Positions 5,095 to 23,725 are shown, counted from the stretch's first letter. The stretch is DNA of 23,725 nucleotides from a candidate division WOR-3 bacterium (GCA_965649115.1 CBFGJN010000026.1:1-23725); one strand, 5' to 3'. Numbers and translations are program-made. Notes: generated by a model not told the origin, from the letters alone.

Positions 5095-7164
5095 ATGATA
5101 TTTATTTTATTTGAAATAGAAGACACCTTAAAAACTTATCAACTTAAAGAAACAATTATAACTTCAAGTGCTACAAAGGACGCTCCTGTTTCATATAGTC
5201 AAATCAACGATGAAAACATATCTAAAATTTATACTTTTCAAGATGTTCCTTATTTGCTTTCAAGAACACCAAATTTATTCTTTTATTCAGATGCTGGAAA
5301 TGGCCTAAATTATAACTATATTAAAATTAGAGGATTTTCTGATAAATATATTTCTGCTTTAATAAATGATATTCCAACAAATGATATTGAAAGTGGTGAT
5401 ATTTATTGGATAGATTATCCTGATATTTTAAGTAGTGCTTCATATATTCAAGTTCAAAGAGGAACAGGCTATGCTCCTTATGGTATTTCTGCTATTGGTG
5501 GTGTTATAAATGTTGTAGGTTTTAAATTTTCAGAAATTCCAAAAACTTCTATATTTGCTGGTTATGGCTCATATAGAACATTTAGATTTACATCTGAATA
5601 CTCTTCAAATAACATATATGCAAGATTTTCAAAAATGAAGACTGATGGTTATAGAGACAAGTCTTGGAGTGATTTGTATAGCTATTATATTGCTTTAAGA
5701 AGAACTTCAAAAAATTCTATAACAACGCTTGTTTTTCAAGGTGGAAATGAATATACGCATCTTGCTTATGAAGGTATAGATACGATAACATTAAAACAAG
5801 ATAGAAAATATAATCCGTTAAATTTTGATGATGAAACTGATTTATTTTTTAGACCTCACTATGAACTTCATCAAGAAAATTTCATAGGTAATTTATATAT
5901 AAAAAATATCATCTATGCTATAGTAGGAAATGGAAGATTTAGACAAAAAAGAAGTGGTAAATGGTATGAGTACTTTTATGAATTATGGAATGATACGATT
6001 GGGGATACAAAATTCAATTTAGTTAGGGAAAGATGGGTAAATGAGAGTGATTATGGTTATATTCCAAGAATTTCTTATATTTCTGATAAGTATGAATTTT
6101 CAATAGGGGCAAATTTCATATATCACAAATCAGAACATTATGGTTTAATTTTATGGGCTGATTCTCTTCCTTCTTGTTGTAGAGAACCAAATAGAAAGTA
6201 CTATTATTATAACCTCGATAAATTTGTTGCTAATGCTTATCTTCAGTTAATTTTAAAACCTACAAATAAACTAAAAATTCTAACAACTTATTTAAATGCT
6301 TATAATCAAAGTAAATTTTACAACTATTATCCAAGAGGAATAGAATACACTGTTTCATATTTCTTTCCATCACCAAGATTCGGAATAAATTACGATGTAA
6401 ATGAAAATTTAAGTTTGTTTTTAAATACATCATTAAATTCAAGGGAACCTGGAACGAGGGAAATTTACGATGCCCAATATCCATATTGGAATGATCCAAC
6501 ATATGATTTTGAAAATTGTTCAAATAATAAATGTTCAAATCCAAGAAAAAAGCCAGAAAATGCTAGAAGTATAGAAGTGGGGACAAGATATTCAAAAGAT
6601 AGATTTAACTTTGATTTTAATGTTTATTATATGAATTTTAGAGATGCTCTTGTATTTGGAGGAAAAGTTATAGATGGTATTCCAATTTTAACAAATGCTG
6701 GTGTTGTTGAATATAAAGGAATTGAAGTTTCATTTAATTTACCAATTTATAACTTCTTAAATTTATATACTTCATTCAGTTATTCAAATAATAAGTATAT
6801 TGATTTTAAAGGAGAGGATTGGAATGGTCCATTTGATTATTCGGGAAATGTTGTTGCAGGTTATCCAAATTATTTAATTTATTTAAGTTTAGATTTTAAC
6901 TATAAGAATTTAACAGTGATTTTTGAAGAAAGAGGTGTTGGTAAGCAATTTATAGACCCTTCAAACAAATTTACAATTGAACCTTATTTTATCACAAATA
7001 CGATTTTTTATTATGAATTTAGGAACTTTCAATTAAAAGGAGGTATTTATAATGTTTTTAATAAACTTTACAATCAATTTGGATATTTAAGTGATGATAA
7101 TGAACCATTATTCATTCCCGCTGCTGAAAGAAATTTCTTTTTGGGTTTGGGAGTGAATTTTTAA
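5095..7164 (+). CDS. TonB-dependent outer-membrane receptor, probably for thiamine or a precursor
   Basis: Plug motifs (LSRTPNL, SDAGNG, IKIRGF, IQVQRG, YG..AIGGVINV), aromatic beta-strands and C-terminal RNFFLGLGVNF. It is the last gene of the TPP-regulated operon; the substrate is inferred from that context. Confidence 0.85.
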   Translation: MIFILFEIEDTLKTYQLKETIITSSATKDAPVSYSQINDENISKIYTFQDVPYLLSRTPNLFFYSDAGNGLNYNYIKIRGFSDKYISALINDIPTNDIESGDIYWIDYPDILSSASYIQVQRGTGYAPYGISAIGGVINVVGFKFSEIPKTSIFAGYGSYRTFRFTSEYSSNNIYARFSKMKTDGYRDKSWSDLYSYYIALRRTSKNSITTLVFQGGNEYTHLAYEGIDTITLKQDRKYNPLNFDDETDLFFRPHYELHQENFIGNLYIKNIIYAIVGNGRFRQKRSGKWYEYFYELWNDTIGDTKFNLVRERWVNESDYGYIPRISYISDKYEFSIGANFIYHKSEHYGLILWADSLPSCCREPNRKYYYYNLDKFVANAYLQLILKPTNKLKILTTYLNAYNQSKFYNYYPRGIEYTVSYFFPSPRFGINYDVNENLSLFLNTSLNSREPGTREIYDAQYPYWNDPTYDFENCSNNKCSNPRKKPENARSIEVGTRYSKDRFNFDFNVYYMNFRDALVFGGKVIDGIPILTNAGVVEYKGIEVSFNLPIYNFLNLYTSFSYSNNKYIDFKGEDWNGPFDYSGNVVAGYPNYLIYLSLDFNYKNLTVIFEERGVGKQFIDPSNKFTIEPYFITNTIFYYEFRNFQLKGGIYNVFNKLYNQFGYLSDDNEPLFIPAAERNFFLGLGVNF

Positions 7165-7172
7165 TTTAGAAG

Positions 7173-7377
7173 TGATGTGTCTAGTAATTCTGAAATCATT
7201 TATTTTTCTTGTTTCGCCCACACACCCTCTGTGTTCAAGACTTCGCCTTTAAAATGCCCATTTTTCGGCCTAGGGGGTTTCGCCCCCCTTAAAAACCCCT
7301 GTGAAAACTGTAATTTTCTTAAAATTTTTATAAGTTATTGGCAATCAATAACTTAACAATAATTATTGGACAAAGCA
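7173..7377 (+). mobile_element. 205-bp MITE, full copy with probable target-site duplication
   Basis: Termini tgatgtgtctagtaatt and aattattggacaaagca form an imperfect IR. Same length as the copy at 10913-11117. atttagaa occurs on both flanks (7164-7171 and 7378-7385). Confidence 0.8.
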
Positions 7378-7469
7378 ATTTAGAATTAATTTATTGGGGG
7401 CAAAGCCCTCCAAGGCAAAATTTGGGATATTTAGAAGCCGATAGGTAAAGAATAGAAACAATTATATTT

Positions 7470-10876: not shown

Positions 10877-10912
10877 AGTTTTGAAATTTTAAAGCTTTTT
10901 TTAATTTCCGTG

Positions 10913-11117
10913 TGCTTTGTCTAGTAATTCTAAAAATATGATTATTTCTATATTTTCCCCACCCACCCTATGAATAAGGCTTCGCCTTATAAATACCCAT
11001 TTTTCGGCTATGGGGGCGAAGCCCCCATTAAAAACCCCCCATAAAAACTATAATTTTCTTAAAATTTTTATAAGTTATTGACAATCAATAAGTTAGCAAT
11101 AATTATTGGACAAAGCA
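10913..11117 (+). mobile_element. 205-bp MITE, full copy; right end abuts a truncated cas5
   Basis: TIR tgctttgtctagtaatt / aattattggacaaagca (15/17 match). Internal hairpin atgggggcgaagcccccat and IHF-like palindrome at 11071-11095. No matching TSD. Confidence 0.82.
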
Positions 11118-11118
11118 A

Positions 11119-11385
11119 ACTGAAATTGGTGGCAATTTTAAAAAATTTATATGGATTCCAAAAGAAACTTTCCCTCAAAATCAATTTAACTTTGAAAAAA
11201 TTGAGGGTATTTTATACAAAATTCCAACATTTTATTCACTGAAAAATGGCATAAGAGATTTTCAATATATTGATGTTAAGCTAAATGAAGGTGAAATTAA
11301 CGCAGAGCGGGAAATAAAACTTTATATTGATGAAGAAGAAAATGCGCCAGTATTTTTAGCAAATTTAGGAGGAGCTTTAATATGA
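11119..11385 (+). pseudogene. cas5: 3' remnant of a type I-B Cas5-like gene (no start codon)
   Basis: Start-less 88-codon frame TEIGGNFKKFIWIPKETF...FEKIEGILYKIPTFYSLKNGIRDFQYIDVKLNEG...LYIDEEENAPVFLANLGGALI* resembles Cas5 C-termini as I recall them. It ends in a GGAGG plus ATGA overlap, and cas3-4-1-2 lie downstream. Confidence 0.62.
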
Positions 11386-11437
11386 ACGAGCTAAGATTGC
11401 TTGTTCTATTTATTTGTAAATTAGGAGGATTAGGAAT

Positions 11438-13672
11438 ATGGCTGGAGAACCCATAAGTGAAGAGGATTCAAAAACTCTTATAGATGAACATTTGAGAAAC
11501 AGAGGATGGGACATTACTGATTTCTCAAAAATTAAGAAAGAATATCTCACACCAGCAGGAAAACCTGTAGATTACATATTTTTTGATAAAAATGGAAATC
11601 CGGTAGCAATTTTAGAAGCAAAAAAGCTGGGTAAGGATTTATATGGAGCTCTTGAACAAGCTAAAGGTTATGTGAAAGAATTTCAAGAAGATGGTATAGA
11701 TATATCCCTTGTTTTTTCAAGTGATGGAAAAATTTTTCTGAAGCAGAATTTGAAGGCAAGAACACTTCCTGAAAGGATAGAACAATTTCCAACTCCAGAT
11801 GAGTTCTATGAAATAATTCATCCCGAAGTGAAAAAAGTTATCATTCATCTAAGACCCTATCAAAAAATTGCCATCTCACAGGTAATATCATCTTTTCTTG
11901 CAGGCAGGGATAAGATGTATATACACATGGCAACAGGAACAGGAAAAACAGCAGTTGCATCATCAATCATCGCCAAGTTACTAACTATGGGAAAAATCAA
12001 AAAAGTTTTATTTATGGTCGATAGAGACTCTTTGGCAACCCAAACTGTGAATAAATTAAAAGAATATGGCCTTGGTGAATACTGGGAGATAAAACGACTT
12101 ACAGCAGATCCATCTGATAGATATGCCGATATCCTGGTTTCTACTGTTCAGATGTTGGCAACAGGAGATAAATTTACATTATATCCTAACGATTTCTTTG
12201 ATTTGATAATACTGGATGAGTGTCATAGATCTTATTTTGGAGATTGGCATAAAGTTGTGGAGTATTTCAGAAGTAACAAAAAAGCTGTAATTCTCGGGCT
12301 TACCGCAACTCCCTCTGATAAAGAAACTGTTAATACTGATGAATATTTTGGACCACCTGTTTTTAAATATACCTACAGACAAGCGGTCAAGGACGGTATT
12401 CTTGCAGATACAATTTACTACAAATTTCAAACTAATGTTGACCTTTATGGAATTCATGAACTTGGTTTTGATTTTGACCCTGAAGATTTGGGAAGGGCTG
12501 TGGATGTTACTCAAAGAAATGAACTAATTGCGGAGAAGTATTTTGAAGTTATTGATTTTGAAAAGGAGAAGAAACTGAAAAAAGCCCTCGTATTTGCTGC
12601 AAGTATTCCGCATGCAAACAATTTAAGATACGCATTCATTAAAAAATATAACGAGCTTATGGGACTACCACCTAATGATGCTACCGCAGAGGATTTTATA
12701 GTAGCAATCCATACGGGAATGCCTAATGCTAAGGATTTGATAAGAGAGTTTCAACGGATTAATAGCAGAATTAAAATTGCCGTCTCAATAGATATGCTTT
12801 CCACAGGAATTGACGCCCCGGACATTGAAGTCCTCGTTATGGCAAGACCAACTAAATCCAAAGTTCTCTATGCTCAAATGAAGGGAAGAGGAGCAAGAAA
12901 ATGTGAAGAAACTGGCAAAGATAAGTTCATTCTTATTGACTTTGTCGACTCTTGGGCTATTGAGGAAGAGATTATAACAAATGAAATTTTAGAAAAAGAG
13001 GAAGAAACTCAATACGAAGAACCTGTTTCATCTGAAAAAGAACCAACAGTGGTAGGGGAAAAACAGGCAGAATATAAAGTAAAAGAACACAGAGAGGTTA
13101 GGCACAAGGAGATGGTAATTCTTGATATCCCTGTGTGGATAGAATATTCAGAAGTAATAGAACCTCAAATAATTGATCAAATTACAAAACAAATACAACA
13201 TCAGGTAAAAAATGCAAGTGATAGAATAACACTAACATCTAAATTCCAGCAAGCACTAATTTCTTGGCGGTATTTTAGGGGTGATGAACCTGTTAGTGAA
13301 GATTATCTAAAAGCTATGGGTTTTGACCTTGAAACATTGAGAGAAATATATGGTGAACCCAAAGCAGAGTTAAAGGACTTTATTGATGTTGCACTTGGCA
13401 AAAAGACATTTCCCACACCTGAAGAAAGGAAAAAGCAAACTTTTAAAAGATGGCTAAAAGAAGAAAAGAAAATTCCAGACGAGGGAATAGATTTTATTAT
13501 GATTTATGTTGACTTTAAGAGCAAAAATCCAGAGCTTACCCTTTCACAGTTCATTAGGAGTAGAATTGTAGATTTGAAAGGCGGACTCACAAAAATTGAG
13601 CAGATATTTGGAAGTGTTGAAAACTTCAAAAATTTAGCAGAAGAAACATACAGGAGGTGGGAACATGGCTGA
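11438..13672 (+). CDS. hsdR: Type I restriction enzyme R subunit
   Basis: PD-(D/E)xK nuclease (PVDY...LEAKK, EQAKGY), Walker A MATGTGKT, DECHRS, GLTATP, MLSTGIDAP and QMKGRGAR. Confidence 0.92.
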   Translation: MAGEPISEEDSKTLIDEHLRNRGWDITDFSKIKKEYLTPAGKPVDYIFFDKNGNPVAILEAKKLGKDLYGALEQAKGYVKEFQEDGIDISLVFSSDGKIFLKQNLKARTLPERIEQFPTPDEFYEIIHPEVKKVIIHLRPYQKIAISQVISSFLAGRDKMYIHMATGTGKTAVASSIIAKLLTMGKIKKVLFMVDRDSLATQTVNKLKEYGLGEYWEIKRLTADPSDRYADILVSTVQMLATGDKFTLYPNDFFDLIILDECHRSYFGDWHKVVEYFRSNKKAVILGLTATPSDKETVNTDEYFGPPVFKYTYRQAVKDGILADTIYYKFQTNVDLYGIHELGFDFDPEDLGRAVDVTQRNELIAEKYFEVIDFEKEKKLKKALVFAASIPHANNLRYAFIKKYNELMGLPPNDATAEDFIVAIHTGMPNAKDLIREFQRINSRIKIAVSIDMLSTGIDAPDIEVLVMARPTKSKVLYAQMKGRGARKCEETGKDKFILIDFVDSWAIEEEIITNEILEKEEETQYEEPVSSEKEPTVVGEKQAEYKVKEHREVRHKEMVILDIPVWIEYSEVIEPQIIDQITKQIQHQVKNASDRITLTSKFQQALISWRYFRGDEPVSEDYLKAMGFDLETLREIYGEPKAELKDFIDVALGKKTFPTPEERKKQTFKRWLKEEKKIPDEGIDFIMIYVDFKSKNPELTLSQFIRSRIVDLKGGLTKIEQIFGSVENFKNLAEETYRRWEHG

Positions 13673-15209
13673 CACAATTCATGATTTTGGAAGGTTGTTG
13701 TGGGAAATAGCAGGAATACTAAGACAGGAGGGCTTGCCTTCATGGGAGTATGTAGAGGAGTTTTCATATTTTCTATTCCTCAAACTCTTTGATGAAAAAG
13801 AAATAGAGCGGGAGAAAATAGCCCAGGTTGATGAAAAAGATTACACTCCGATAATCCCTGAAAAATTCAGATTTCATAATTGGGCAGAAGCACCAGAAAG
13901 TTGGGCTAAATCTCAAGGATATAGGGATGTGGCGGATTTTTTGAAAGATTTATTTTCTACACTTGCAAAACTTGATAAACAAGGAAATCAAGAAAGAAAG
14001 ATAATAGCAAAAATTTTCAAAGGACACGAACCGAAGATAAAAAAGGATAAAACACTAAGCGAACTTGCAAAAAGGATTTTAGATTTAAGGTTAAGAGGTG
14101 TCCCTTATGACCAGATGGGACAAGCATATGAGTATCTCATCCAGAAAATTGGCGCTGAAAAGGAATTTTCTGAATACTTTACACCAAGACATATTGTTGA
14201 GTTCATGGTTGAGATAATTGACCCAAAACCAGCTGAAAAAATCTACGACCCTGCAGCAGGAACTGGTGGCTTTCTCGTGAAAGCGCACGATTATGTTATT
14301 CATAAATATATAGAGAAGGAAAAAGATTCAGCAAAGAAGGAATTTTTGTTAAGACAGCTTAGAGAAAATCTATTTGGTAGGGAGAAAGTAGAATATGTTT
14401 ATCGCCTTGGTCTTATGAATCTTGTCCTGCACGGGGATGGGAGTTCAAACTTTGAGCATGGAGATTCTTTATCCGCTCCTGTAATAGCAAAAGAGAGAAA
14501 TTTCTACGATGTTGTTCTTACAAATCCTCCTTTTGGCAATTTGAAGTATGAGATAACAGGGACCTTTGACCACCCGACGAAGAGGATGGAAACTTTATTC
14601 TTACAGCATGTTATGAACGCAGTAAAACCAGGGGGAAGAGTTGGAATAGTTGTTCCTGATAGTGTTCTTTTCAGGGCAGATAATGCTCATAAATGGGTAA
14701 GAAAAAGATTAATTGAAGAGTTCAATGTTTTTGCGATTGTATCTTTGCCTTCTGGTGTTTTTCAGCCATACACAGGGTCAAAGACCTCTCTGCTTTTCTT
14801 TGAAAAACCAAAAGATGAAAACGCTCCAAAAACAACAAAGATATGGTATTATGTGGTTGAAAACGATGGTTTTGATTTGGGGGCAACAAGGCGACCCATA
14901 TATAAGAATGACCTACCAGATGCTTTAATGAAATGGAAAATTTGGAAAGAAAATGGAAAAGTTCCAGATGAGTGGTTTGGAGAAGGACCTAATCCAGATA
15001 AACAAAAGTGCTGGGTTGTTAATGTTGATACAATAAGAAAAAATGATTATTATCTTAATGCAAACCGCTATGCTCCTTATAAAGTTGAAGAAGTTGAATA
15101 CGAAGACCCTGCAACGCTTATAGAGGAGTTGATTTCTAAGCAGGAGGAAATACTTGATGGAATGAAAAAACTATATTCATTAATTGGGGGAGCGAACCAT
15201 GACCTTTGA
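13665..15209 (+). CDS. hsdM: Type I R-M N6-adenine methyltransferase M subunit
   Basis: YFLFLK, EYFTPRHIV, motif I DPAAGTGGFL, motif IV NPPF, SLPSGVFQPY and NDGFDL. Overlaps the hsdR stop. Confidence 0.94.
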   Translation: MADTIHDFGRLLWEIAGILRQEGLPSWEYVEEFSYFLFLKLFDEKEIEREKIAQVDEKDYTPIIPEKFRFHNWAEAPESWAKSQGYRDVADFLKDLFSTLAKLDKQGNQERKIIAKIFKGHEPKIKKDKTLSELAKRILDLRLRGVPYDQMGQAYEYLIQKIGAEKEFSEYFTPRHIVEFMVEIIDPKPAEKIYDPAAGTGGFLVKAHDYVIHKYIEKEKDSAKKEFLLRQLRENLFGREKVEYVYRLGLMNLVLHGDGSSNFEHGDSLSAPVIAKERNFYDVVLTNPPFGNLKYEITGTFDHPTKRMETLFLQHVMNAVKPGGRVGIVVPDSVLFRADNAHKWVRKRLIEEFNVFAIVSLPSGVFQPYTGSKTSLLFFEKPKDENAPKTTKIWYYVVENDGFDLGATRRPIYKNDLPDALMKWKIWKENGKVPDEWFGEGPNPDKQKCWVVNVDTIRKNDYYLNANRYAPYKVEEVEYEDPATLIEELISKQEEILDGMKKLYSLIGGANHDL

Positions 15210-16905
15210 GAACCTGCCAGATACCTGGAAGGTTGTGAGATTGGGAGATAATTTAATAAAACTTGAAACAGGGAAGAGACAAAAAGGTGGTGCTTTAAAA
15301 GAAGGAGATGTTCTAAGTATAGGAGGGGAACATATAAATGATTTTGGTAGAGTAGAAATAAAGGAACCCAAATATATCACTTTTGACTTTTACAAAAAAT
15401 TAAAAAATGGGAAATTACAAAAAGGGGATATTGTTGTCTGTAAGGATGGTGCAAAGACAGGGAAAGTGGCGTATATTCATGAACTGCCGAGTGAGTATTG
15501 TGCTGTTAATGAGCATGTATTTATTATCCGAACGCAAGAGGAGAAATTAAATAGTGCTTATTTATTTTTCTTCCTCTTTTCCAAAGAAGGACAAAGACAA
15601 ATACGGGAAAGATTTCACGGGATTATTTGGGGAATAAAGAAAGAAGATGTTTACGAGATTTCAATCCCCCTTCCACCACTTCCAGAACAAAAACTCATTG
15701 TTGAAATCCTAACCCTTGCACAAGATTTGATAAGAAAGCAAAAAGAAGCCATAGCTTTGATTGATAAAATCCTCATGGCTAAATTCATTGAAATGTTCGG
15801 CGACCCTGCAACAAATCCCAAGGGGTGGGAAGTGAGGAGATTGGGAGATAATTTAATAAAACTTGAAACAGGGAAGAGACAGAAAGGTGGTGCTTTAAAA
15901 GAAGGAGATGTTCTAAGTATAGGAGGGGAACATATAAATGATTTTGGTAGAGTAGAAATAAAGGAACCCAAATATATCACTTTTGACTTTTACAAAAAAT
16001 TAAAAAATGGGAAATTACAAAAAGGGGATATTGTTGTCTGTAAGGATGGTGCAAAGACAGGGAAAGTGGCGTATATTCATGAACTGCCGAGTGAGTATTG
16101 TGCTGTTAATGAGCATGTATTTATTATCCGAACGCAAGAGGAGAAATTAAATAGTGCTTATTTATTTTTCTTCCTCTTTTCCAAAGAAGGACAAAGACAA
16201 ATACGGGAAAGATTTCACGGGATTATTGGGGGAATAAAGAAAGAAGATGTTTACGAGATTTCAATCCCCCTTCCACCCATAGAACTCCAAAAACAATTTG
16301 CCCAAATCGTTGAAGAATTTGAAAAGAAGAGAGAAGAAATGCAAAAAAACTTGGAAACCCTTGAATCACTCTTTAAACTCCTTCAGAAAAAAGCGTTTAC
16401 AGGAGAACTGACAGCAAAGTGGAGAGAACAGAATAAAATTGAGTGGGAACTTCCAAAGATAACAGAGAGACAAGCTGTTTTGCTTGCCTGTCTTTATTAC
16501 TATCAAAACCTCGTCCAAAAGCCTGCTATGGTTACCATGGCTATGAAATCGGCATTTCTCCTTCAACAAGAAGCAGGTCTAAATCTTGGCTATAACTTCA
16601 TACCTTACAAATACGGACCCTTTTCCAAAGAAGTATATGAAGATTTGGAAGAACTTGAGAAAAACCTTCTCGTTGAAAGAGTAAAGCCAAAGAAAGATTT
16701 AGAAATGACAGAGATTAAACTTCTTGATGAATTCAAAGATTGGACAGAAAGAATAATAAATAATCTCCCTCAAAAAATAAAATATGAGATAAAAACTTAC
16801 ACAGAAAAATATGGCAAGATGAACCTTAACGAATTGCTTGATTATGTCTATGCTAAATATCCTAAATATGCGATAAAGAGTGAGAGAAAGGAAAGAAAAA
16901 AATGA
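15199..16905 (+). CDS. hsdS: Type I R-M specificity subunit with two near-identical TRDs and a C-terminal Panacea/DUF4065(SocA)-like domain
   Basis: ATG 15199. LPDTWKVVRLG, PLPPLPEQ, EMFGDP.TNPKGW, PLPPIELQ and AFTGEL, followed by about 160 extra aa with TMAMKSAFLL, YNFIPYKYGPFSKEVY and LLDYVYAKYP. Confidence 0.9.
   Translation: MTFENLPDTWKVVRLGDNLIKLETGKRQKGGALKEGDVLSIGGEHINDFGRVEIKEPKYITFDFYKKLKNGKLQKGDIVVCKDGAKTGKVAYIHELPSEYCAVNEHVFIIRTQEEKLNSAYLFFFLFSKEGQRQIRERFHGIIWGIKKEDVYEISIPLPPLPEQKLIVEILTLAQDLIRKQKEAIALIDKILMAKFIEMFGDPATNPKGWEVRRLGDNLIKLETGKRQKGGALKEGDVLSIGGEHINDFGRVEIKEPKYITFDFYKKLKNGKLQKGDIVVCKDGAKTGKVAYIHELPSEYCAVNEHVFIIRTQEEKLNSAYLFFFLFSKEGQRQIRERFHGIIGGIKKEDVYEISIPLPPIELQKQFAQIVEEFEKKREEMQKNLETLESLFKLLQKKAFTGELTAKWREQNKIEWELPKITERQAVLLACLYYYQNLVQKPAMVTMAMKSAFLLQQEAGLNLGYNFIPYKYGPFSKEVYEDLEELEKNLLVERVKPKKDLEMTEIKLLDEFKDWTERIINNLPQKIKYEIKTYTEKYGKMNLNELLDYVYAKYPKYAIKSERKERKK
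15237..16277 (+). repeat. 441-bp direct repeat (TRD1 15237-15677, TRD2 15837-16277), 2 mismatches
   Basis: Line-by-line comparison at a 600-bp offset shows differences only at 15282/15882 (silent) and 15628/16228 (TGG Trp vs GGG Gly). Confidence 0.97.
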
Positions 16906-18431
16906 GTGGAAGAACATGGAAAAATGTAAATTCTTATACCGCCGAAGAAATTAAAAATTATCTAATAAAAAATGGGGGCAAAGAACAGGAAGTCAAATCT
17001 CCACATGAGCACTGGCGAGTTAGATTTTCCGATTCAACTTTTACTTATTATAAAAAAGGGACTCTTTATAGCACTTTCTCTAACTCAAAAGACCCTGCGG
17101 TATTTCAAGCATGGCAACAAATAGATTCCATTGTTGGCTCTTGTTATATTCTGCCAAGTAAGGATTTTCTTATCGGTTTAGATGAAACTGGGAAGGGAGA
17201 AGTTATTGGACATACAGTTTTAACAGGCATAATTTTCCCAAAAGAGATTTTTAAAGAAATAGACCTATTGGTAGGTCCAGCAGATACAAAAAAGAGGCAC
17301 GAATTTAAATACTGGGATGATATCTTTATAAAATTGGATAAGTTGAGAAGCAGGGGTCTTGATTTTATCTATGAGAAAATCCCTCCTTGGCATGTTGATA
17401 AATATAACCTGAATAAAATAATGGATGTAAGTTATCAACGAATACTCTCTATTTTCCTACGAAAAATTGAAATTTCACGCTGTAGAATAGTTCTGGATGA
17501 TTATGGGATAGGAGACACTCTAAAACGATTTTTAAACTTCTTAAAACAACAAGGAGCGGAAGTTATCGTTGCTCAAAACTCTGAAGACAAATATCTTGAG
17601 GCAAAAGTTGCTTCGCTAATCTCAAAGAGACAAAGAGAAGCTATAATAAAAGCTATCAATGAAAACCCCGAATTTCAGATAGATGGATTATCTGTGGGTT
17701 CAGGTAATGCAGGAGATCCAAAAACTGACGCTTGGCTCAAAGCATGGTGGAATAAAAACAAAGATTTTCCTTGGTTTGTAAAGAGGTCTTTTAATAATGT
17801 GAGAATGATTGAGGGAAGGTCTGGGGGGATAAAAAAAATTTCTCCACCAATTGATGAAAAACTATTATCTGATAAATTTTTAGAGGATTTCAATGAAGGC
17901 AAGCTCTCTATTCGATCTCTTTCTTTGGTTTGTCCTCATTGCGGTACTGATTTAAAAAGTGTTGAGTTTGCGGTTTTCAAGAAAAATGGTAAGGATATAA
18001 GTGGAGTAAAATGTGTCAACAAGGATTGCGGAAAAATTATTGATAATGTAGGAATAACTTTAAGATATTATTGTGGATATATTTTACCAGATAGTAGTGC
18101 TATTCAGAGCAGGGTTATATCACGAGACCTTAACAGTTCAAAGTTTTTTGAAAATTTTACAATAATCCTTTCGCCAGTGGTTAGAAAAGAATGTGATGGA
18201 ACTCCAAGAGGAAAGAAAGAGTTTGAAGAATTGTCCAAACTCAATTCTATGGGCAGAATAAAATTAGAGAGTGTTGAAAAAATAGAAGAAATCTTGGATG
18301 ATCTAACTAATGAAGAAAGAGATGAAAGAATCATAGAAGATTGCATAAAATATAATGCCATATTATTAACTGCTGATAAATCTATGTTAGCATTTGCAAG
18401 CGGTAGAGATGTTTTCACAATATATCTTTAA
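16902..18431 (+). CDS. Fusion protein: RNase HIII-like N-domain, RNase HII/HIII catalytic domain, Zn ribbon and PIN nuclease domain
   Basis: TFTYYKKGTL (N-domain). IGLDETGKGE, ADTK, IVLDDY, SEDKYLEAKVASLISK, GSGNAGD and PWFVKRSF (type 2 RNase H). CPHC...CVNKDC (Zn). ILPDSS, SPVVRKE, RDERII and ILLTADK (PIN). ATGA overlap with hsdS. Confidence 0.8.
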   Translation: MSGRTWKNVNSYTAEEIKNYLIKNGGKEQEVKSPHEHWRVRFSDSTFTYYKKGTLYSTFSNSKDPAVFQAWQQIDSIVGSCYILPSKDFLIGLDETGKGEVIGHTVLTGIIFPKEIFKEIDLLVGPADTKKRHEFKYWDDIFIKLDKLRSRGLDFIYEKIPPWHVDKYNLNKIMDVSYQRILSIFLRKIEISRCRIVLDDYGIGDTLKRFLNFLKQQGAEVIVAQNSEDKYLEAKVASLISKRQREAIIKAINENPEFQIDGLSVGSGNAGDPKTDAWLKAWWNKNKDFPWFVKRSFNNVRMIEGRSGGIKKISPPIDEKLLSDKFLEDFNEGKLSIRSLSLVCPHCGTDLKSVEFAVFKKNGKDISGVKCVNKDCGKIIDNVGITLRYYCGYILPDSSAIQSRVISRDLNSSKFFENFTIILSPVVRKECDGTPRGKKEFEELSKLNSMGRIKLESVEKIEEILDDLTNEERDERIIEDCIKYNAILLTADKSMLAFASGRDVFTIYL

Positions 18432-18529: not shown

Positions 18530-21187
18530 ATGAATGAAAGTATGATTTTAGCAAAAAGTTTTAAAGAAAATTGGAATATAATAACCTTATCTCAACACAC
18601 AAAAGATATTCTATCAGCTTTTGAAAGTATAAAAGATAAAGTTCCAACTGAACTTCATCTACCAATAAAAATAGCAATTTTTTATCATGATTTTGGAAAG
18701 GTTATTCCAAAATTTCAAATAGAGAAACTTAGAAATAAAAACTATGAACCTTTTGATATTATATATGAAATTCCGCATTCTTTGTTTTCAGTCTTTTGGA
18801 TTGACGAAGAGAAAATAAAAGAAATTTTAAATGACGAAAAAATTATAAAATTTATTATTTCAGCAGTTGCTTATCATCACTGGCGAGAAAGTTTTGATGA
18901 TTACATAAGAACTAATGAAGATTTTAAAAAATTCGCTAAAAAGGTTTTAGATGAATGGAAAGATAAATTTGAAGAGAAATTAAGAAATGAATTTGGAAAT
19001 TTAAATATAAACGATACCGATATTTTTGAGTTAATTAAAAACATAGCTTTGAATGAGAAAAGATTGAAAAAAATTTTAAATAATTTTAGTTTTTATAGAA
19101 TAGCTATTCCACCTTATAAATTTGATTATCAGATTTTAAGAGAAACATTAAGCCAAAGCTTTGAAGACCAGAAAAAATGGATTTTAATTTCTGGATTTCT
19201 GCAAAGATGCGACCACTTTGCATCATTTTGTGAAGAAGAAGGAGAAAGTTTAGATAAAATTGAAATAAATCAGCCTGACTTTAATTCAGTAAGAGGAAAA
19301 GTAAAAGAAATAATAAAAGAAGATGAAAACAAAATCTGGCAAATTCAAAAATTAAATGAAGAAAGAAGAAATAAAAACTTGATTTTAATTGCTCCAACAG
19401 GTTATGGAAAAACTGAATTTGCATTTCTTTGGTCAAATTCAGAAAAGTTCATTTACACTTTGCCTTTGCGTTCAGCAGTAAATCAAATCTATGAGAGAGC
19501 AAAAGAAATTTTTGGAAATGAAAAAGTTGGATTACTTTATTCAGACGCAGATATTTATTTAAATGAAAAAGAAAAAGATGTTGGAGATACTTCAAAGCTC
19601 TATGAACTTGCCAAAGCTCTTTCTTTCCCTGCTATAATTTCAACAGGAGACCAATTCTTCCCTTATGCTTTAAGACCACCAGGATATGAAAAAATTTTTG
19701 CTTTATTTTCCTACTCACGACTTGTTATTGATGAAGTTCAAGCTTACGACCCAAAAGCTTGTGCTATTGTAGTTAGTTTTATTGAATGGGTTTATAAAAT
19801 GGGTGGAAAATTTCTCTTGATGAGTGCTACTATGCCAAGTTTTGTTTTAAATGAAATAAAAAAAAGAATTGGGAATAACTTTGATGAAATAAATATCTAC
19901 AAAGAAGAAAAAGAAAATTTTCAAAAATTTTTCAAACACAAAATAAAAATTGAGCTAATCAATAATGAAGAAGGTCAGATAAAACAAATCATAGAACAAG
20001 CAAAAAATGGCAAAAGAGTTCTTGTTATTTTAAATACAGTCAAAAAAGCACAAGAAATTTATGAAAAATTAAAAGAGAATGTAGATAATTCACTTAAAAA
20101 CAAAATTTTCTTAATTCACTCTCGTTTTACACTTGAAGATAGAAGAGAAAAAGAAACTAAACTTATTGAAAAGGAATTTAAAAACCCAAAACCTCAAGAT
20201 GAAAACGAAGGAAAAATTTTAGTGGCAACACAAGTTGTTGAAGCAAGCTTAGATATTGATGCTGATGTTCTATTTACTGAGATTTGCCCACTTGATGCCT
20301 TAATTCAAAGAATGGGAAGAGTTTTAAGAAGGTATTTTTATTCATCAGAAAGCACAGAGGAAAAGTCTGATTATAAAGTTTTTGGAGACAAACCTAATGT
20401 TTTCGTTTGGGTTTTCAAAAATGAACTTGAATCAGGACAAGGTAAAGTTTATAATAAGGAAATTATAAGACTTTCCTTAGTATGGCTTTGGAAGAAACAT
20501 AAGGATGAAATTTTAGATATTCCAGAAGAAAAAGCAAATAAAACAAAAGAAGAACTTTCGGAATTTTTTAGCCAGCATTTTGTTAATTTAATTCAACCTT
20601 CACAAAGAATAGAACAATCAAGCAGGAAAAGGAAGAGTAAGGAAAATGAAAATATACTACAAAAAATTATTGAAAATGATGAGTGGATCAATAATATCAA
20701 TGAGGAGTTAGTGATTGAGCTCAGTGAATACAGCAAGTTCAAACTTGTTGATAACTTTTACAAATCAATTCCTTCTGATAGTGAATATATTAAAGAATTT
20801 TATGAAACACTTGAAGTTATTGATAGTAGTTATATGTCAGAAAAAAGAAGTCAAGCTCAAGGAATTTTTAGAGAGATTTATAATGTTGATGTTATTATAA
20901 AAGAAAAATTAGAAGAATTTAAAAATGAAATTAGAAAATTTATAAAACATAAAAATTCATTTTTAGAATTTAAAAAAGACATTTTGATGAAATTTATTGT
21001 TTCTATTCCATATAGGAGAAGTTTGGATTTAAGTAAAAAATTAAATTATAAAATTGATGTTGAAGATGAAATTTGGAGAAAAAAATTATTTTCTTGGCTT
21101 GATGGAATTTACATTATTGATGGAAGTTATGACGAGGAAAAAGGTTTAATTTTTAAGGATTTTGAAGATGATTCAATCATTTATTGA
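18530..21187 (+). CDS. cas3: CRISPR-associated HD nuclease/helicase Cas3
   Basis: LSQHT, YHDFGK, PHS, AYHH, CDHFAS, APTGYGKT, DEVQ, MSAT, IHSRF, ATQVVEASLDID and QRMGR. Confidence 0.96.
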   Translation: MNESMILAKSFKENWNIITLSQHTKDILSAFESIKDKVPTELHLPIKIAIFYHDFGKVIPKFQIEKLRNKNYEPFDIIYEIPHSLFSVFWIDEEKIKEILNDEKIIKFIISAVAYHHWRESFDDYIRTNEDFKKFAKKVLDEWKDKFEEKLRNEFGNLNINDTDIFELIKNIALNEKRLKKILNNFSFYRIAIPPYKFDYQILRETLSQSFEDQKKWILISGFLQRCDHFASFCEEEGESLDKIEINQPDFNSVRGKVKEIIKEDENKIWQIQKLNEERRNKNLILIAPTGYGKTEFAFLWSNSEKFIYTLPLRSAVNQIYERAKEIFGNEKVGLLYSDADIYLNEKEKDVGDTSKLYELAKALSFPAIISTGDQFFPYALRPPGYEKIFALFSYSRLVIDEVQAYDPKACAIVVSFIEWVYKMGGKFLLMSATMPSFVLNEIKKRIGNNFDEINIYKEEKENFQKFFKHKIKIELINNEEGQIKQIIEQAKNGKRVLVILNTVKKAQEIYEKLKENVDNSLKNKIFLIHSRFTLEDRREKETKLIEKEFKNPKPQDENEGKILVATQVVEASLDIDADVLFTEICPLDALIQRMGRVLRRYFYSSESTEEKSDYKVFGDKPNVFVWVFKNELESGQGKVYNKEIIRLSLVWLWKKHKDEILDIPEEKANKTKEELSEFFSQHFVNLIQPSQRIEQSSRKRKSKENENILQKIIENDEWINNINEELVIELSEYSKFKLVDNFYKSIPSDSEYIKEFYETLEVIDSSYMSEKRSQAQGIFREIYNVDVIIKEKLEEFKNEIRKFIKHKNSFLEFKKDILMKFIVSIPYRRSLDLSKKLNYKIDVEDEIWRKKLFSWLDGIYIIDGSYDEEKGLIFKDFEDDSIIY

Positions 21188-21695
21188 TTTAAATAAGATG
21201 TACATTACAGGAGTTGAAGTTGCTTATTATATAGTTTGTAAAAGAAAGTTATGGTTATTTTCAAAGCAAATAAGTTTTGAGCATACATCGGAATTTATTG
21301 AAATTGGTAAAATTATTGAAAGACAATTTTACAGAGAAGAGGAAAAAATTACAAGTTATTTCTACGAACCAATAAAAATAGACTTTATAACTCTTGAAGA
21401 CGGCATTATTATTCATGAAGTTAAAAAAGGAAAATCACTTGAAACTGCTCACATTTACCAAGTTAAGTACTACATTTGGTTTTTAAGAAATAAAGGGATA
21501 AATGTAAAATACGGAATTATTCACTATCCGAAACTTCTAAAAAAAATTGAAGTTTATTTAGAAAATTCAGATAATGAAAAAATCCAAAATGCTTTAAATG
21601 AAATTTTAAAAATTAAATTTTTGAAGAAACCGCCAGAAGTTATAAATAAACCATATTGTAAAAAGTGCGCATATTTTTATTTTTGCTATGGATAG
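21168..21695 (+). CDS. cas4: CRISPR-associated exonuclease Cas4
   Basis: CKRKLWLF, KIDF..., HEVKK, QVKYY and CKKCAYFYFC (Fe-S cysteines). Start could alternatively be ATG 21198. Confidence 0.94.
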   Translation: MIQSFIDLNKMYITGVEVAYYIVCKRKLWLFSKQISFEHTSEFIEIGKIIERQFYREEEKITSYFYEPIKIDFITLEDGIIIHEVKKGKSLETAHIYQVKYYIWFLRNKGINVKYGIIHYPKLLKKIEVYLENSDNEKIQNALNEILKIKFLKKPPEVINKPYCKKCAYFYFCYG

Positions 21696-22638
21696 GAGTT
21701 ATTATATTTTAAAATCAGGGAGTTTATATAGAGAACAAAATACAATTGTTTTTGAGACAAGTGAAGGTAAGAAATTTTTACCTGTTGAAAATGTTAGAGA
21801 TATTTACCTTTTTGGTGAAGTTTCCTTAAATACAAAATTATTGAATTTTTTAAGTCAAAATGAAATTATCCTTCACATTTTTAATTATTATGGTTATTAT
21901 TCAGGAAGCTTCTTTCCAAGAGAAAAGTATATTTCAGGAAAATTATTAATTTTACAGGCTGAACACTATTTAGATTTTGACAAAAGACTGTTTTTAGCAA
22001 AGAAAACTATTGAAGGCTCAATTTCTAACATTTTAAGAAATTTAAAAGAAATAAATTCTCAAAGAATTGAAGAAGTTAAAAAAATTTTCAAAGAATTAGA
22101 AATTGCTAATGATATTGAAAAAATTATGAATATAGAAGGAAGAATAAGGGAAATTTATTATAATGAATTTTTTGAAATTGAAAAGAGAACAAGAAGACCA
22201 CCACTTGACCCAATAAATGCTTTAATTTCTTTTGGGAATTCACTTTTATATGCGACTATTATCTCTGAAATTTATATAACTCAATTAAATCCTACAATTA
22301 GTTATTTACACGAACCTTCTGAAAGAAGGTTTTCATTAGCACTTGATATTTCTGAAATTTTCAAGCCAATTATTGTTGATAATATAATTAGAAGAATTTT
22401 AAATCTTAACATAATTAACGAAAATGACTTTTTGAAGGAATTAAATTATTGTTATTTAAATGATGAGGGAAAAAGAAAATTTATTAAGGAATATGAAGAA
22501 AAACTAAAATCTACAATAAAACATAGAAAATTGAAAAGAAAAGTTTCTTATAGAATGTTAATTAGGCTTGAATGCTATAAAATTATGAAACATTTGTTGG
22601 GTGATGAGATATATGAACCTTTAAAAATTTGGTGGTAA
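21688..22638 (+). CDS. cas1: CRISPR-associated integrase Cas1 (type I-B-like)
   Basis: FNYYGYYSGSF, IEG, RRPPLDPINALISFGNSLLY, SYLHEP, LALDISEIFKP and LECYK...WW. Confidence 0.96.
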   Translation: MDRSYYILKSGSLYREQNTIVFETSEGKKFLPVENVRDIYLFGEVSLNTKLLNFLSQNEIILHIFNYYGYYSGSFFPREKYISGKLLILQAEHYLDFDKRLFLAKKTIEGSISNILRNLKEINSQRIEEVKKIFKELEIANDIEKIMNIEGRIREIYYNEFFEIEKRTRRPPLDPINALISFGNSLLYATIISEIYITQLNPTISYLHEPSERRFSLALDISEIFKPIIVDNIIRRILNLNIINENDFLKELNYCYLNDEGKRKFIKEYEEKLKSTIKHRKLKRKVSYRMLIRLECYKIMKHLLGDEIYEPLKIWW

Positions 22639-22639
22639 T

Positions 22640-22906
22640 ATGTTCTTTATTATTACCTATGATATTGCTGATGAACAAAGACTAAATAAGGTTAGAAAAA
22701 TTTTAAGAAAGTACTTTAATTGGGTTCAAAATAGTGTTTTTGAGGGCGAAATAACAGCATCAAAATTAGAAAAATGTATTTTTGAGCTTAAAGAAGTTAT
22801 AAATGAAAAAGAAGATTCAATTTATTTTTATCAAGTAGAAAATTACAAAGGACTTAAGAAAACGATTTTGGGTATAGCAAAGAATTTAACTGATAACATT
22901 ATTTAG
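22640..22906 (+). CDS. cas2: CRISPR-associated Cas2
   Basis: IITYDI, KVRKILRKY, WVQNSVFEG and DSIYFY. Confidence 0.96.
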   Translation: MFFIITYDIADEQRLNKVRKILRKYFNWVQNSVFEGEITASKLEKCIFELKEVINEKEDSIYFYQVENYKGLKKTILGIAKNLTDNII

Positions 22907-23114
22907 TCAAATTATATTTTTATTTAATTTATCAAATTTCAAATTATTTTTAAAATTGGATTTTTATTAACTTAACAATTTAATGGTAATTTTATCCTTT
23001 TAAATTTATTTTAAGTAAAGGCTTTTTCCAACCAATCAAATTAATTTTATTTTAATTAGACAATTTAAGGCAAAAGGTTAATAAATTGACAAATTAAATA
23101 AATAGTTTTTTTTG

Positions 23115-23255
23115 TGCTTTGTCCGATAAATAGTTTTAAATCTTTGAGCATTAACGACTTAAGAAAATTATAGTTTTAATGGGGGCGGAGTTCCCATGGC
23201 CAAAGGCTTAAATTCAGGGTAGGCAAAATATAGAAGAATATATATTTTTAGAATT
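23115..23255 (-). repeat. Degenerate inverted MITE copy
   Basis: Begins tgctttgtccgataa. Contains aagaaaattatagttttaatgggggc and aaaatatagaa...atttttagaatt, which are reverse complements of the 10913 copy. Confidence 0.7.
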
Positions 23256-23259
23256 TTCT

Positions 23260-23725
23260 TGTTTTAAAAAAATCAAATTAAAATTTTTTTAAATTGATAA
23301 ATTATTAAATTTTATTTTTAGAATAACTTTTATAAATTTACTTTTTAATTTGCTAAATTAAGGCATAAATTAAATAACTTATTGATTATCAATAATTTAG
23401 ACCTTGTCACAAACCCCCCTCTTTTTTAAAAATTTCCATTTTTCAAAACTTTAATTTTAATCAGGCAAATTAAAATTTAGTATTTATAAGGAATTTAGAT
23501 ATATTTTAAGTTATTGGTTTTCAATAACTTATAAAATTTTTTATTTTAAAAGCTTATCAGAAGCAAGAGTCACAAACCTAAAATTTTGAAGAATTTTATT
23601 TAGCGAATTAGAATTAGATAATTTAATTAAGTTATTGATTAAGAGTTATTTATTAATTTATCATTTTAATTTGACTAATAACAAGGTGGAGGTTTGTGGC
23701 AATTGACATTCGTTTGAGGTATGCT
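23260..23725 (+). promoter_or_regulatory. Probable CRISPR leader; any array would lie beyond the window
   Basis: Very AT-rich and non-coding, downstream of cas2. IHF-like palindromes at 23375 and 23507, half site at 23628. gtcacaaacc at 23406 and 23569, with inverted ggtttgtggc at 23691. No repeated CRISPR unit is visible. Confidence 0.5.

Follow-up and report, generated by a model that had tools for sequence, protein, structure and literature searches.

A mobile RNase HIII-like/PIN nuclease at the end of a type I restriction-modification operon, possibly docked to a C-terminal extension of HsdS

Introduction

Why does a gene for a two-headed nuclease overlap the end of a type I restriction-modification (R-M) operon, directly behind a specificity subunit that carries an additional C-terminal domain? 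The question is raised by a stretch of DNA from a candidate division WOR-3 bacterium (GCA_965649115.1 CBFGJN010000026.1:1-23725; the window), which is an entire contig of 23,725 bases from an AT-rich genome. Its genes hsdR, hsdM and hsdS are followed by a gene for a 509-amino acid (aa) protein in which an RNase HIII-like module, a zinc ribbon and a PIN domain are joined. An earlier interpretation of the same DNA (the sequence-only reading) had proposed that an antitoxin-like domain on HsdS silences this protein until phage anti-restriction proteins release it.

The answer preferred here, with a probability of about 0.42, is that the fourth gene encodes a mobile back-up nuclease, which occupies a slot of the PrrC type and which, in the clade of the window, is docked to HsdS via the extension. 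The nuclease gene recurs inside defence operons based on methyltransferases or as their last gene, the operons being type I R-M systems, an R-M fusion with an S subunit, and DUF1156/DUF499 systems related to BREX. All the evidence is computational, and the loci are few and mostly from metagenome bins.

The R-M operon and its fourth gene

The four genes lie on the plus strand and overlap at each junction. The first, hsdR (11438..13672, + strand), encodes a 744-aa type I restriction subunit of EcoAI/type IB-like character, recognized by the Pfam families ResIII, SWI2_SNF2, Helicase_C, EcoEI_R_C and HSDR_N and by the PADLOC model REase_I; its match to NCBIfam restrict_EcoAI (expectation value, E, 6e-86) lies under the equivalog cut-off. 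The second, hsdM (13665..15209, + strand), encodes a 514-aa N6-adenine methyltransferase subunit (Pfam N6_Mtase, 2e-62, and HsdM_N; PADLOC MTase_I, 6.6e-135). The third, hsdS (15199..16905, + strand), encodes a 568-aa specificity subunit with two stretches of Pfam Methylase_S and a PADLOC Specificity_I match of 2.5e-113. The ATG at 15199 is the likelier start of hsdS; a TTG at 15184 is also open and would yield 573 aa. The overlap is 8 nucleotides (nt) between hsdR and hsdM, 11 nt between hsdM and hsdS, counted from the ATG at 15199, and 4 nt between hsdS and the nuclease gene, where it forms an ATGA at 16902. A scan of the operon found no convincing terminator between the four genes.

Each of the three subunits has the hallmarks of a type I enzyme. 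HsdR contains the residues of a PD-(D/E)xK nuclease (D45..E60-x-K62) and the SF2 helicase motif DECH260, HsdM contains NPPF287 and PAAGTGG (S-adenosylmethionine), and HsdS has duplicated recognition domains. The two target-recognition domains of HsdS are nearly identical, their coding sequences forming a direct repeat of 300 nt (15226-15525 and 15826-16125; 98% identity), and the recognition site of this R-M system is therefore probably symmetric. This type I R-M operon is intact, its genes are translationally coupled, and the fourth of them encodes the nuclease. The open reading frames (ORFs), Pfam and PADLOC thus bear out the four co-oriented, overlapping genes, joined at their end by the ATGA, from which the sequence-only reading had started.

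The nuclease

The nuclease ORF (16902..18431, + strand) encodes 509 aa in four parts. The N-terminal domain (residues 1-90; 16902..17171, + strand) resembles the substrate-binding N-domain of RNase HIII, and both a profile search of the PDB and Foldseek match it to the RNase H3 structures 4py5 and 3vn5 from residue 11 onwards; the NCBIfam model rnhC matches residues 13-253. It is followed by a type 2 RNase H catalytic domain (residues 91-313; 17172..17840, + strand). Pfam RNase_HII covers residues 91-300 of this domain with 53.9 bits (cut-off 25.8), and the profile of the nuclease family finds archaeal RNase HII structures at E of about 1e-26. The third part is a four-cysteine zinc ribbon (C344, C347, C371 and C376; 17919..18041, + strand), which is recognized by a pair of beta-hairpins at 353-371 in the model and by the conservation of the cysteines, all four of which are kept in 28/28 full-length relatives. 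The C-terminal PIN domain (residues ~390-509; 18069..18431, stop codon included, + strand) is found by profile (MJ1533 PIN, 3i8o, E 2.3e-6, residues 390-497; also 1o4w) and by Foldseek (PINA 5f4h, MJ1533 3i8o, 3ix7 and AF0591 1o4w); the Pfam PIN model gives no match at E <= 0.01.

The AlphaFold2 model of the nuclease has a pLDDT of 92.7 and a pTM of 0.87. Foldseek ranks the RNase H3 of Thermovibrio (4py5) and of Aquifex (3vn5) first and archaeal RNase HII next, and the protein shares with these enzymes (4py5 and 3vn5; 1uax, 1io2 and 1eke) the type 2 RNase H fold and the catalytic acidic residues. With RNase HIII it also shares the N-terminal substrate-binding domain and a GKG loop; the loop sits after the DE pair, an arrangement that is taken here to be the RNase HIII form. 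It differs from both kinds of enzyme in being only 22-26% identical to them, in its additional zinc ribbon and PIN domain, in its sporadic, transferred distribution and in scoring below the NCBIfam equivalog cut-offs. The fusion of RNase H and PIN named by the sequence-only reading is thus present with both its domains, although the RNase H module has to be redefined as HIII-like, with an N-domain of its own, and the linker as a four-cysteine zinc ribbon.

Of the RNase H residues, D94, E95 and D199 are each found in 27/28 full-length relatives, and position 229 has D or E in 27/28. The acidic residues of the PIN part are kept somewhat less strictly among the 28 relatives (D397 in 24/28, E430 in 21/28, D474 in 18/28 and D492 in 24/28). 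Because the catalytic residues are kept in the relatives, both heads look active. No ATPase domain was found in the nuclease by Pfam, NCBIfam or Foldseek, which see only RNase H, zinc ribbon and PIN. There is no small ORF for a VapB-type antitoxin directly upstream of the nuclease gene, the upstream gene being hsdS. A search of the ESM Atlas returned only the nuclease's own RNase_HII cluster.

By analogy, the N-domain suggests binding to RNA:DNA hybrids. The label 'TBP-like' is applied to the N-domain of RNase HIII in the main text of PMC3710099, where hybrid binding is argued for fusions with TBP-like domains. The same text describes 'two-headed' defence RNases, in which HEPN is joined with either RNase H or a TBP-like domain and which are predicted to attack the RNA of invader RNA:DNA duplexes (PMC3710099), and the main text of a second paper describes PIN back-up effectors carried by BREX-related DUF499 systems (PMC12839542). 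The present nuclease resembles these proteins in having two nuclease heads and a domain that may bind hybrids, and in that such a PIN-bearing gene lies in DUF1156/DUF499 operons (loci L007 and L008, see below); it differs from the two-headed RNases as described there in that its second head is PIN and not HEPN. An RNase H-PIN protein is not named in the main text of either PMC3710099 or PMC12839542, and the supplementary tables of the latter may list the family. No published description of the RNase HIII-like/zinc-ribbon/PIN family was found in the literature searched.

Distribution of the nuclease and the RNase H genes of the host

Homologues of about 509 aa, 60-87% identical to the nuclease, number more than 540 and occur in Thermotogota, Dictyoglomus, Chloroflexota, Thermococcus and Asgard archaea. 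A search of all cluster representatives gave 515 clusters at E <= 0.001, of which 89 reached E <= 1e-30, and these include a form of about 310 aa that has neither zinc ribbon nor PIN domain. Within the phylum of the host the long form is rare: it is present in 2/272 genomes, the own genome being counted, in 2/41 close relatives and in 0/4 other genomes of the genus. Such sporadic presence, together with 60-87% identity across the domains of life, identifies the nuclease as a transferred accessory gene. A decayed second copy lies in the same genome (G000:C68:2100-2219, L043), where a fragment with two TAA stops is 70% identical to residues 178-217.

These data bear on the alternative that the protein serves the host by clearing RNA primers or R-loops and only happens to be encoded behind hsdS. 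In its favour, the active site of the RNase H is intact, no match to RNase HI was found in the own genome (94.5% complete), the short form of the protein is conserved by lineage in some families of the phylum, and three of the loci described below have neighbours of a housekeeping kind. However, the rarity of the long form in phylum and genus and its high identity in bacteria and archaea speak for transfer, and the equivalog cut-offs of rnhB and rnhC are not reached (TIGR00729, 77.5 against a cut-off of 123.3; rnhC, 34.3 against 161.2). Moreover, the own genome has a separate 285-aa gene of the RNase HII family, which is also present in 35/41 relatives, so that the 509-aa protein is not the only type 2 RNase H of the host, a point on which the coupling proposed by the sequence-only reading could have failed. 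A housekeeping role for the 509-aa protein is therefore very improbable, and the nuclease can be regarded, from these comparisons, as a horizontally mobile accessory gene that is not the housekeeping RNase H of its host.

The 285-aa gene (G000:C83:4037-4891; L002:886-1743) is divergent, Pfam matching it at profile positions 117-194 only, with 30.4 bits; its product is probably the housekeeping enzyme of the lineage. The short form of the nuclease (about 320 aa, lacking both zinc ribbon and PIN domain) is found in 4/4, 6/6 and 5/6 sampled genomes of families f7, f11 and f29, respectively. Its copies at L051-L067 (genomes G069-G076 and G168-G179) consist of N-domain and RNase H and are 37-53% identical. 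The short form appears to be an RNase HIII-like enzyme conserved by lineage and may be the ancestor of the long form.

The C-terminal extension of HsdS

Past the usual end of an S subunit, HsdS continues with a domain of about 150 aa (residues ~410-573). The part that resembles Panacea and DarG proteins, a predicted winged-helix partner-binding domain, is encoded at 16459..16902 (+ strand; residues ~426-573 of the 573-aa frame) and is recognized by NCBIfam and fold and, at the level of the family, by Pfam. The HsdS of the window itself scores 20.4 bits against Pfam SocA_Panacea (PF13274/DUF4065), which is below the threshold of 25.7, and the family as a whole matches: a database search with the extension gave 30 proteins, and in 26/26 HsdS sequences with the extension that were aligned (26 of the 30 found, four short ones being omitted) SocA_Panacea is matched at E <= 0.01, the best value being 8.5e-8. 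NCBIfam antitoxin_DarG matches the extension at E 2.6e-9 over profile positions 156-276.

The AlphaFold2 model of the extension (pLDDT 88.3, from an alignment of 14 sequences) has as its best match in the PDB the DarG protein in the DarTG complex of M. tuberculosis (7yk3 chains D/B, TM score 0.67/0.64; root-mean-square deviation 3.5 over 153 columns), a molecule named 'DNA ADP-ribosyl glycohydrolase'. Winged-helix regulators of the MarR type match the model far less well (TM score 0.35-0.44). A phmmer search of the PDB sequences with the extension gave no meaningful match and the extension profile a weak one, to DarG, at E 0.086; it is the fold and the NCBIfam match that tie the extension to DarG. 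Together, the 26 matches to PF13274 and the DarG fold uphold the earlier assignment of the HsdS C-terminus as DUF4065/Panacea-like, the window's own protein remaining sub-threshold.

Of the 30 proteins, 29 share the extension at 61-100% identity, that of the window included, and all of these have Methylase_S. The fusion to HsdS is a recent and narrow innovation, restricted to one clade. The PADLOC Specificity_I model PDLC03184 spans the extension, so that S subunits with it are already in reference sets; no published description of a Panacea-like domain fused to a type I specificity subunit was found in the literature searched. Distant homologues of the extension (27-38% identity) form the N-terminal half of fusions with DUF488, occur in a fusion with an HxlR helix-turn-helix near ThiF-like genes, or stand alone (L027). 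Such varied partners, together with the likeness to Panacea and DarG, suggest that the extension belongs to a promiscuous family of partner-binding domains.

Short proteins close to the extension (17 matches) were considered as free antitoxins and rejected, since most of the five that were fetched look like truncated or mis-called hsdS. P0306, P0307 and P0310 begin at an internal Met of the C-terminal helix of HsdS, P0313 contains the end of the S core, and P0317 is the distant homologue that stands alone in L027. In that locus (L027:1668-2739) the gene of the stand-alone homologue (about 180 aa) precedes that of a PIN protein of 197 aa (Pfam PIN, 1e-10), and the two are a candidate Panacea-PIN toxin-antitoxin pair. 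The homologues with DUF488 belong to a conserved two-gene module (L022, L024, L026, L028-L030, L033, L034 and L037). Its first protein, of about 300 aa, joins a DarG/Panacea-like N-domain to DUF488; the second, of about 270 aa and often encoded by an overlapping gene, has no Pfam family and one weak match to DuOB. The module adjoins an OLD-like ATPase in L033. It looks like an enzymatic antitoxin with a toxin of no recognized family.

Genomic contexts of the nuclease and of the extension

How far the nuclease is tied to R-M genes can be judged from 15 non-redundant loci chosen solely for their nuclease (the window, L004-L015, L017, L018 and L040, with L007/L009 counted once; L003 and L019, which have no usable flank, and L016, which has the short form, were excluded). 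These loci were retrieved by peptide words from one protein and many are contigs of metagenome-assembled genomes, so that the following fractions are rough. An R-M or R-M-like gene lies directly beside the nuclease gene or encloses it in 6/15 loci. In the window the nuclease lies 3' of hsdS with the extension, the genes sharing the ATGA. In L005 it follows, with a stop-start overlap, the S subunit of a system composed of an R-M-fusion methylase and S. In L007/L009 it overlaps the end of a DUF1156 methylase gene, and in L008 it precedes a DUF499 ATPase and a SNF2/NOV_C helicase, genes of a system that is BREX-related by the main text of PMC12839542. In L010 the order is hsdM-hsdS-nuclease-hsdR. 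In L014 the nuclease gene overlaps that of an HsdM_N/HsdR-C-like protein of 214 aa, with Mrr_cat adjacent.

A further 6/15 loci have other genes of defence, toxin-antitoxin or mobile character no more than two genes away from the nuclease: SNF2 and HNH in L006, the NADAR antitoxin of DarT1 in L013, M78 with DUF4411 in L015, GmrSD and a serine recombinase in L017, a serine recombinase in L011 and an MNT nucleotidyltransferase in L040. In two unrelated lineages, Thermoplasmatales (L004) and Rhodothermus (L011), the nuclease lies beside NfeD or a pair of NfeD and SPFH genes, which may be a coincidence or a shared insertion site.

The extension was sought in the same loci. A profile of it, run over six-frame ORFs, finds it in the window and in none of the others; tblastn with the extension as query found nothing in 17 genome loci of the nuclease, in agreement with the more sensitive profile. 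Beyond the window the profile matches only L020, L021 and L027, loci which were fetched through the extension itself. The S or M subunits of the R-M-type operons that bear the nuclease in L005, L007/L009 and L010 are without the extension. In L020 and L021, two unrelated metagenome contigs, the same HsdS extension is present and the nuclease gene is next, with a 1-nt overlap. This recurrence indicates that the arrangement is not due to chance. The nuclease lies directly 3' of the extension in 3/3 loci seen (window, L020 and L021), a count that is small and biased, L020 and L021 having been picked by the extension. Three further pairs of extension and nuclease may share contigs, since the contig sizes in the protein tables are equal (14568, 30185 and 5261); these are suggestive only.

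The variety of contexts allows the two elements to be seen as independent neighbours. The nuclease would then be a self-contained mobile gene, with a stand-alone function in defence or nucleic-acid metabolism, that lands at the ends of operons, and the extension would have another role, such as binding another partner or DNA. The many unrelated settings of the nuclease agree with this, as do the winged-helix fold of the extension, with its weaker likeness to MarR-type proteins, and the pairing of its distant homologues with DUF488, HxlR and ThiF neighbourhoods. However, the nuclease gene has a start-stop overlap with an upstream R-M-type gene in four types of system (window, L005, L007/L009 and L014), it directly follows the extension in all three loci where the two were seen together, and DarG is a far better match to the fold than the DNA-binding regulators are. 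Independence of the two is thus unlikely.

The same contexts bear on a possible toxin-antitoxin relationship. Because the nuclease occurs without a Panacea-like domain in 14/15 loci, the extension and the nuclease are not an obligate toxin-antitoxin pair. A pair of this kind might still act as an addiction module, stabilizing the R-M island without any sensing of phage; the domain families are of the toxin-antitoxin type and the locus is a sporadic island. But the nuclease is tolerated where the extension domain is missing, and an antitoxin fused to a stable structural subunit would run contrary to the logic of labile antitoxins. The addiction module is consequently improbable.

Docking and release of the nuclease

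By analogy with known systems, it is possible to propose how the nuclease would act. PrrC is an ABC-ATPase anticodon nuclease, and in the prr locus prrC lies between hsdS and hsdR. The present locus resembles PrrC/EcoprrI and RloC in having the gene of an RNase within a type I R-M operon or coupled to one, and possibly in that a latent nuclease is held by the R-M enzyme. It differs in that the effector is RNase HIII-like with a PIN domain and without an ATPase, and in that the link to HsdS would be a fused Panacea-like domain. From the Panacea antitoxins and DarG, to which the extension is related at the level of the Pfam family and by best fold match, and which it resembles in lying directly upstream of, and overlapping, a putative nuclease gene, it differs by its fusion to the C-terminus of HsdS and by having a partner that is tolerated elsewhere without it.

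The closest precedent for the proposed mode of control is Ronin, as far as it is described in a preprint (bioRxiv 10.1101/2023.04.06.535777). This system consists of HsdS-HsdM and RonA, a 61-aa toxin and small membrane protein, without hsdR; its triggers are ArdA and Aop1 and, in the native strain ECOR55, also Ocr. The likeness lies in type I M and S subunits that are proposed to sequester an adjacent toxic effector, with anti-restriction proteins as the trigger. Compared with that description, hsdR is intact here, the effector is a 509-aa nuclease that looks soluble, and HsdS has an extra domain. The earlier claim of a new architecture accordingly survives in part: the fusion and the nuclease family were not found described, and the concept of an effector coupled to R-M is in print, as the Ronin preprint shows.

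In the reading preferred here, the nuclease would be a second-line effector in the slot used by back-up effectors of the PrrC/Rlo type. In the clade of the window, HsdS would have gained a DarG/Panacea-type domain that docks the nuclease on the core formed by methyltransferase and specificity subunits (M2S). Physical docking on this core is the simplest account of the fusion to HsdS, and it would probably restrain the nuclease. The RNase H head would cut the RNA of RNA:DNA hybrids, such as primers and R-loops, and the PIN head would cut RNA. The release by anti-restriction proteins, which the sequence-only reading had proposed, is an analogy drawn from PrrC and Ronin.

The stricter form of this idea, which the sequence-only reading had put forward, is that the C-domain of HsdS is a true antitoxin, which silences an intrinsically toxic RNase H-PIN protein on the R-M complex, and that Ocr-, ArdA- or Stp-like proteins of phages disturb this complex, set the nuclease free and cause abortive infection, as in PrrC/EcoprrI and Ronin. 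Panacea/DarG-like domains bind and neutralize neighbouring toxins, according to the text of PMC8832971, and a precedent is available in Ronin, where HsdMS is reported to suppress a toxin that is triggered by ArdA and Aop1 and, in the native strain ECOR55, by Ocr as well (bioRxiv 10.1101/2023.04.06.535777). The coupling of hsdS to the nuclease gene by the ATGA and the PIN protein that follows the stand-alone homologue in L027 point in the same direction. So does L010, where the nuclease gene takes the place between hsdS and hsdR that prrC has in its own locus. However, copies of the nuclease with 64-80% identity occur without a Panacea-like domain, both in other R-M-type operons and alone. As the nuclease is tolerated in this way, a constitutive toxicity that needs the HsdS antitoxin is unlikely, and the guard model in its strict form is doubtful.

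In a broader proposal, methylation-based immunity in bacteria and archaea would have in the nuclease a new and widespread back-up effector, held on the methyltransferase-specificity core by differing adaptors. Once phage factors had disabled or occupied this core, the effector would be free to destroy RNA:DNA hybrids and RNA. The Panacea/DarG-like fusion to HsdS would be the adaptor in the window, and a stand-alone HsdM_N/HsdR-C-like protein that in L014. The 214-aa protein of L014 (L014:7349-9491) consists of the HsdM_N/HsdR C-terminal helical domain alone, its gene overlaps the start of the nuclease, and it may be a different adaptor to the R-M complex. In this generality the proposal is rather doubtful.

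Several observations weigh against a back-up nuclease docked on HsdS, beginning with the roughness of the context fractions and the biased count of the loci that have both elements. As 14/15 nuclease loci are without the extension, docking cannot be general. Homologues of the RNase H-PIN protein occur away from R-M loci and without a Panacea-like domain, which goes against the coupling to R-M assumed by the sequence-only reading; one of them, 78% identical and in a genome of the same class, has no adjoining R-M gene. Housekeeping-like settings, in which no gene of the R-M, defence, toxin-antitoxin or mobile kinds lies that close, were seen in 3/15 loci: L004, L012 (GatB/GNAT) and L018 (Thi4/DUF6775). 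The short form seems to be vertically inherited, and the RNase H module could thus have an ordinary role in nucleic acids. No copies of the nuclease were found in plasmid and phage collections, and a search of IMG/VR with one peptide pattern gave no match. Finally, PADLOC, which identified the R, M and S subunits, has 0 families that match the nuclease at E <= 0.01 (PADLOC-DB v2.0.0).

Flanking elements

A set of cas genes (18530-22906) begins 98 nt after the nuclease gene and comprises cas3 (HD and helicase, type I-B-like), cas4, cas1 and cas2. No Cascade genes were found on the contig and no CRISPR array between cas2 and the contig end at 23725. Upstream of hsdR there is a terminator-like hairpin (11384-11406) and, just 5' of the gene, an open frame of 97 codons (11092-11385) that has no obvious start codon at its beginning. 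A promoter-like site (11078..11106, + strand; TTGACA-17-AATTAT, 10/12 consensus matches) lies 5' of hsdR, in or at the edge of a copy of the repeat described below; it is a consensus match only, the number of such sites being no higher than in shuffled sequence.

The repeat resembles a miniature inverted-repeat transposable element (MITE) of about 205 nt with 27-nt terminal inverted repeats, and occurs in the window at 10900-11130, 7160-7378 and, in a degenerate and inverted copy, 23105-23280. The 1.85-Mb genome contains 71 matches to it, of which about 40 span the full length, with 81-94% identity, and its folding is much stronger than that of shuffled sequence (z -6.0). The inverted repeats on either side of the 11.1-23.2 kb region are copies of this MITE; the idea that they mark the ends of an island was therefore rejected. 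A palindromic motif, AAGTTATTGA-N5-TCAATAACTT, is present in four copies in the non-coding flanks (11071-11095, 23375-23399, 23507-23531 and 23628-23652), one of which overlaps the promoter-like site before hsdR. At the other end of the contig a thiamine pyrophosphate (TPP) riboswitch (2182-2295; 75.9 bits, gathering score 54.3) lies ahead of an operon of thi4, tenA, thiC and a TonB-dependent receptor gene.

Implications

Back-up effectors that fire when phages neutralize restriction enzymes, such as PrrC, Ronin and PARIS, are a current theme in the study of defence, and the concept of such an effector coupled to R-M is already established. For very few such effectors is the physical coupling to the R-M complex understood. 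The locus offers two leads in this respect. The first is the nuclease family itself, which is highly conserved in both prokaryotic domains and is found repeatedly in type I, R-M-fusion and BREX-related operons. The second is the antitoxin-type binding domain that HsdS carries as a natural fusion and that points to a specific interface.

If the nuclease were indeed a widespread effector of methylation-based immunity, the HsdS fusion would be direct genomic evidence for an R-M complex that guards an abortive-infection nuclease. If the proposed docking is true, a nuclease directed at RNA:DNA hybrids would be added to the known effectors of defence, and the uses of Panacea/DarG-like domains would widen from free antitoxins to adaptors on larger machines.

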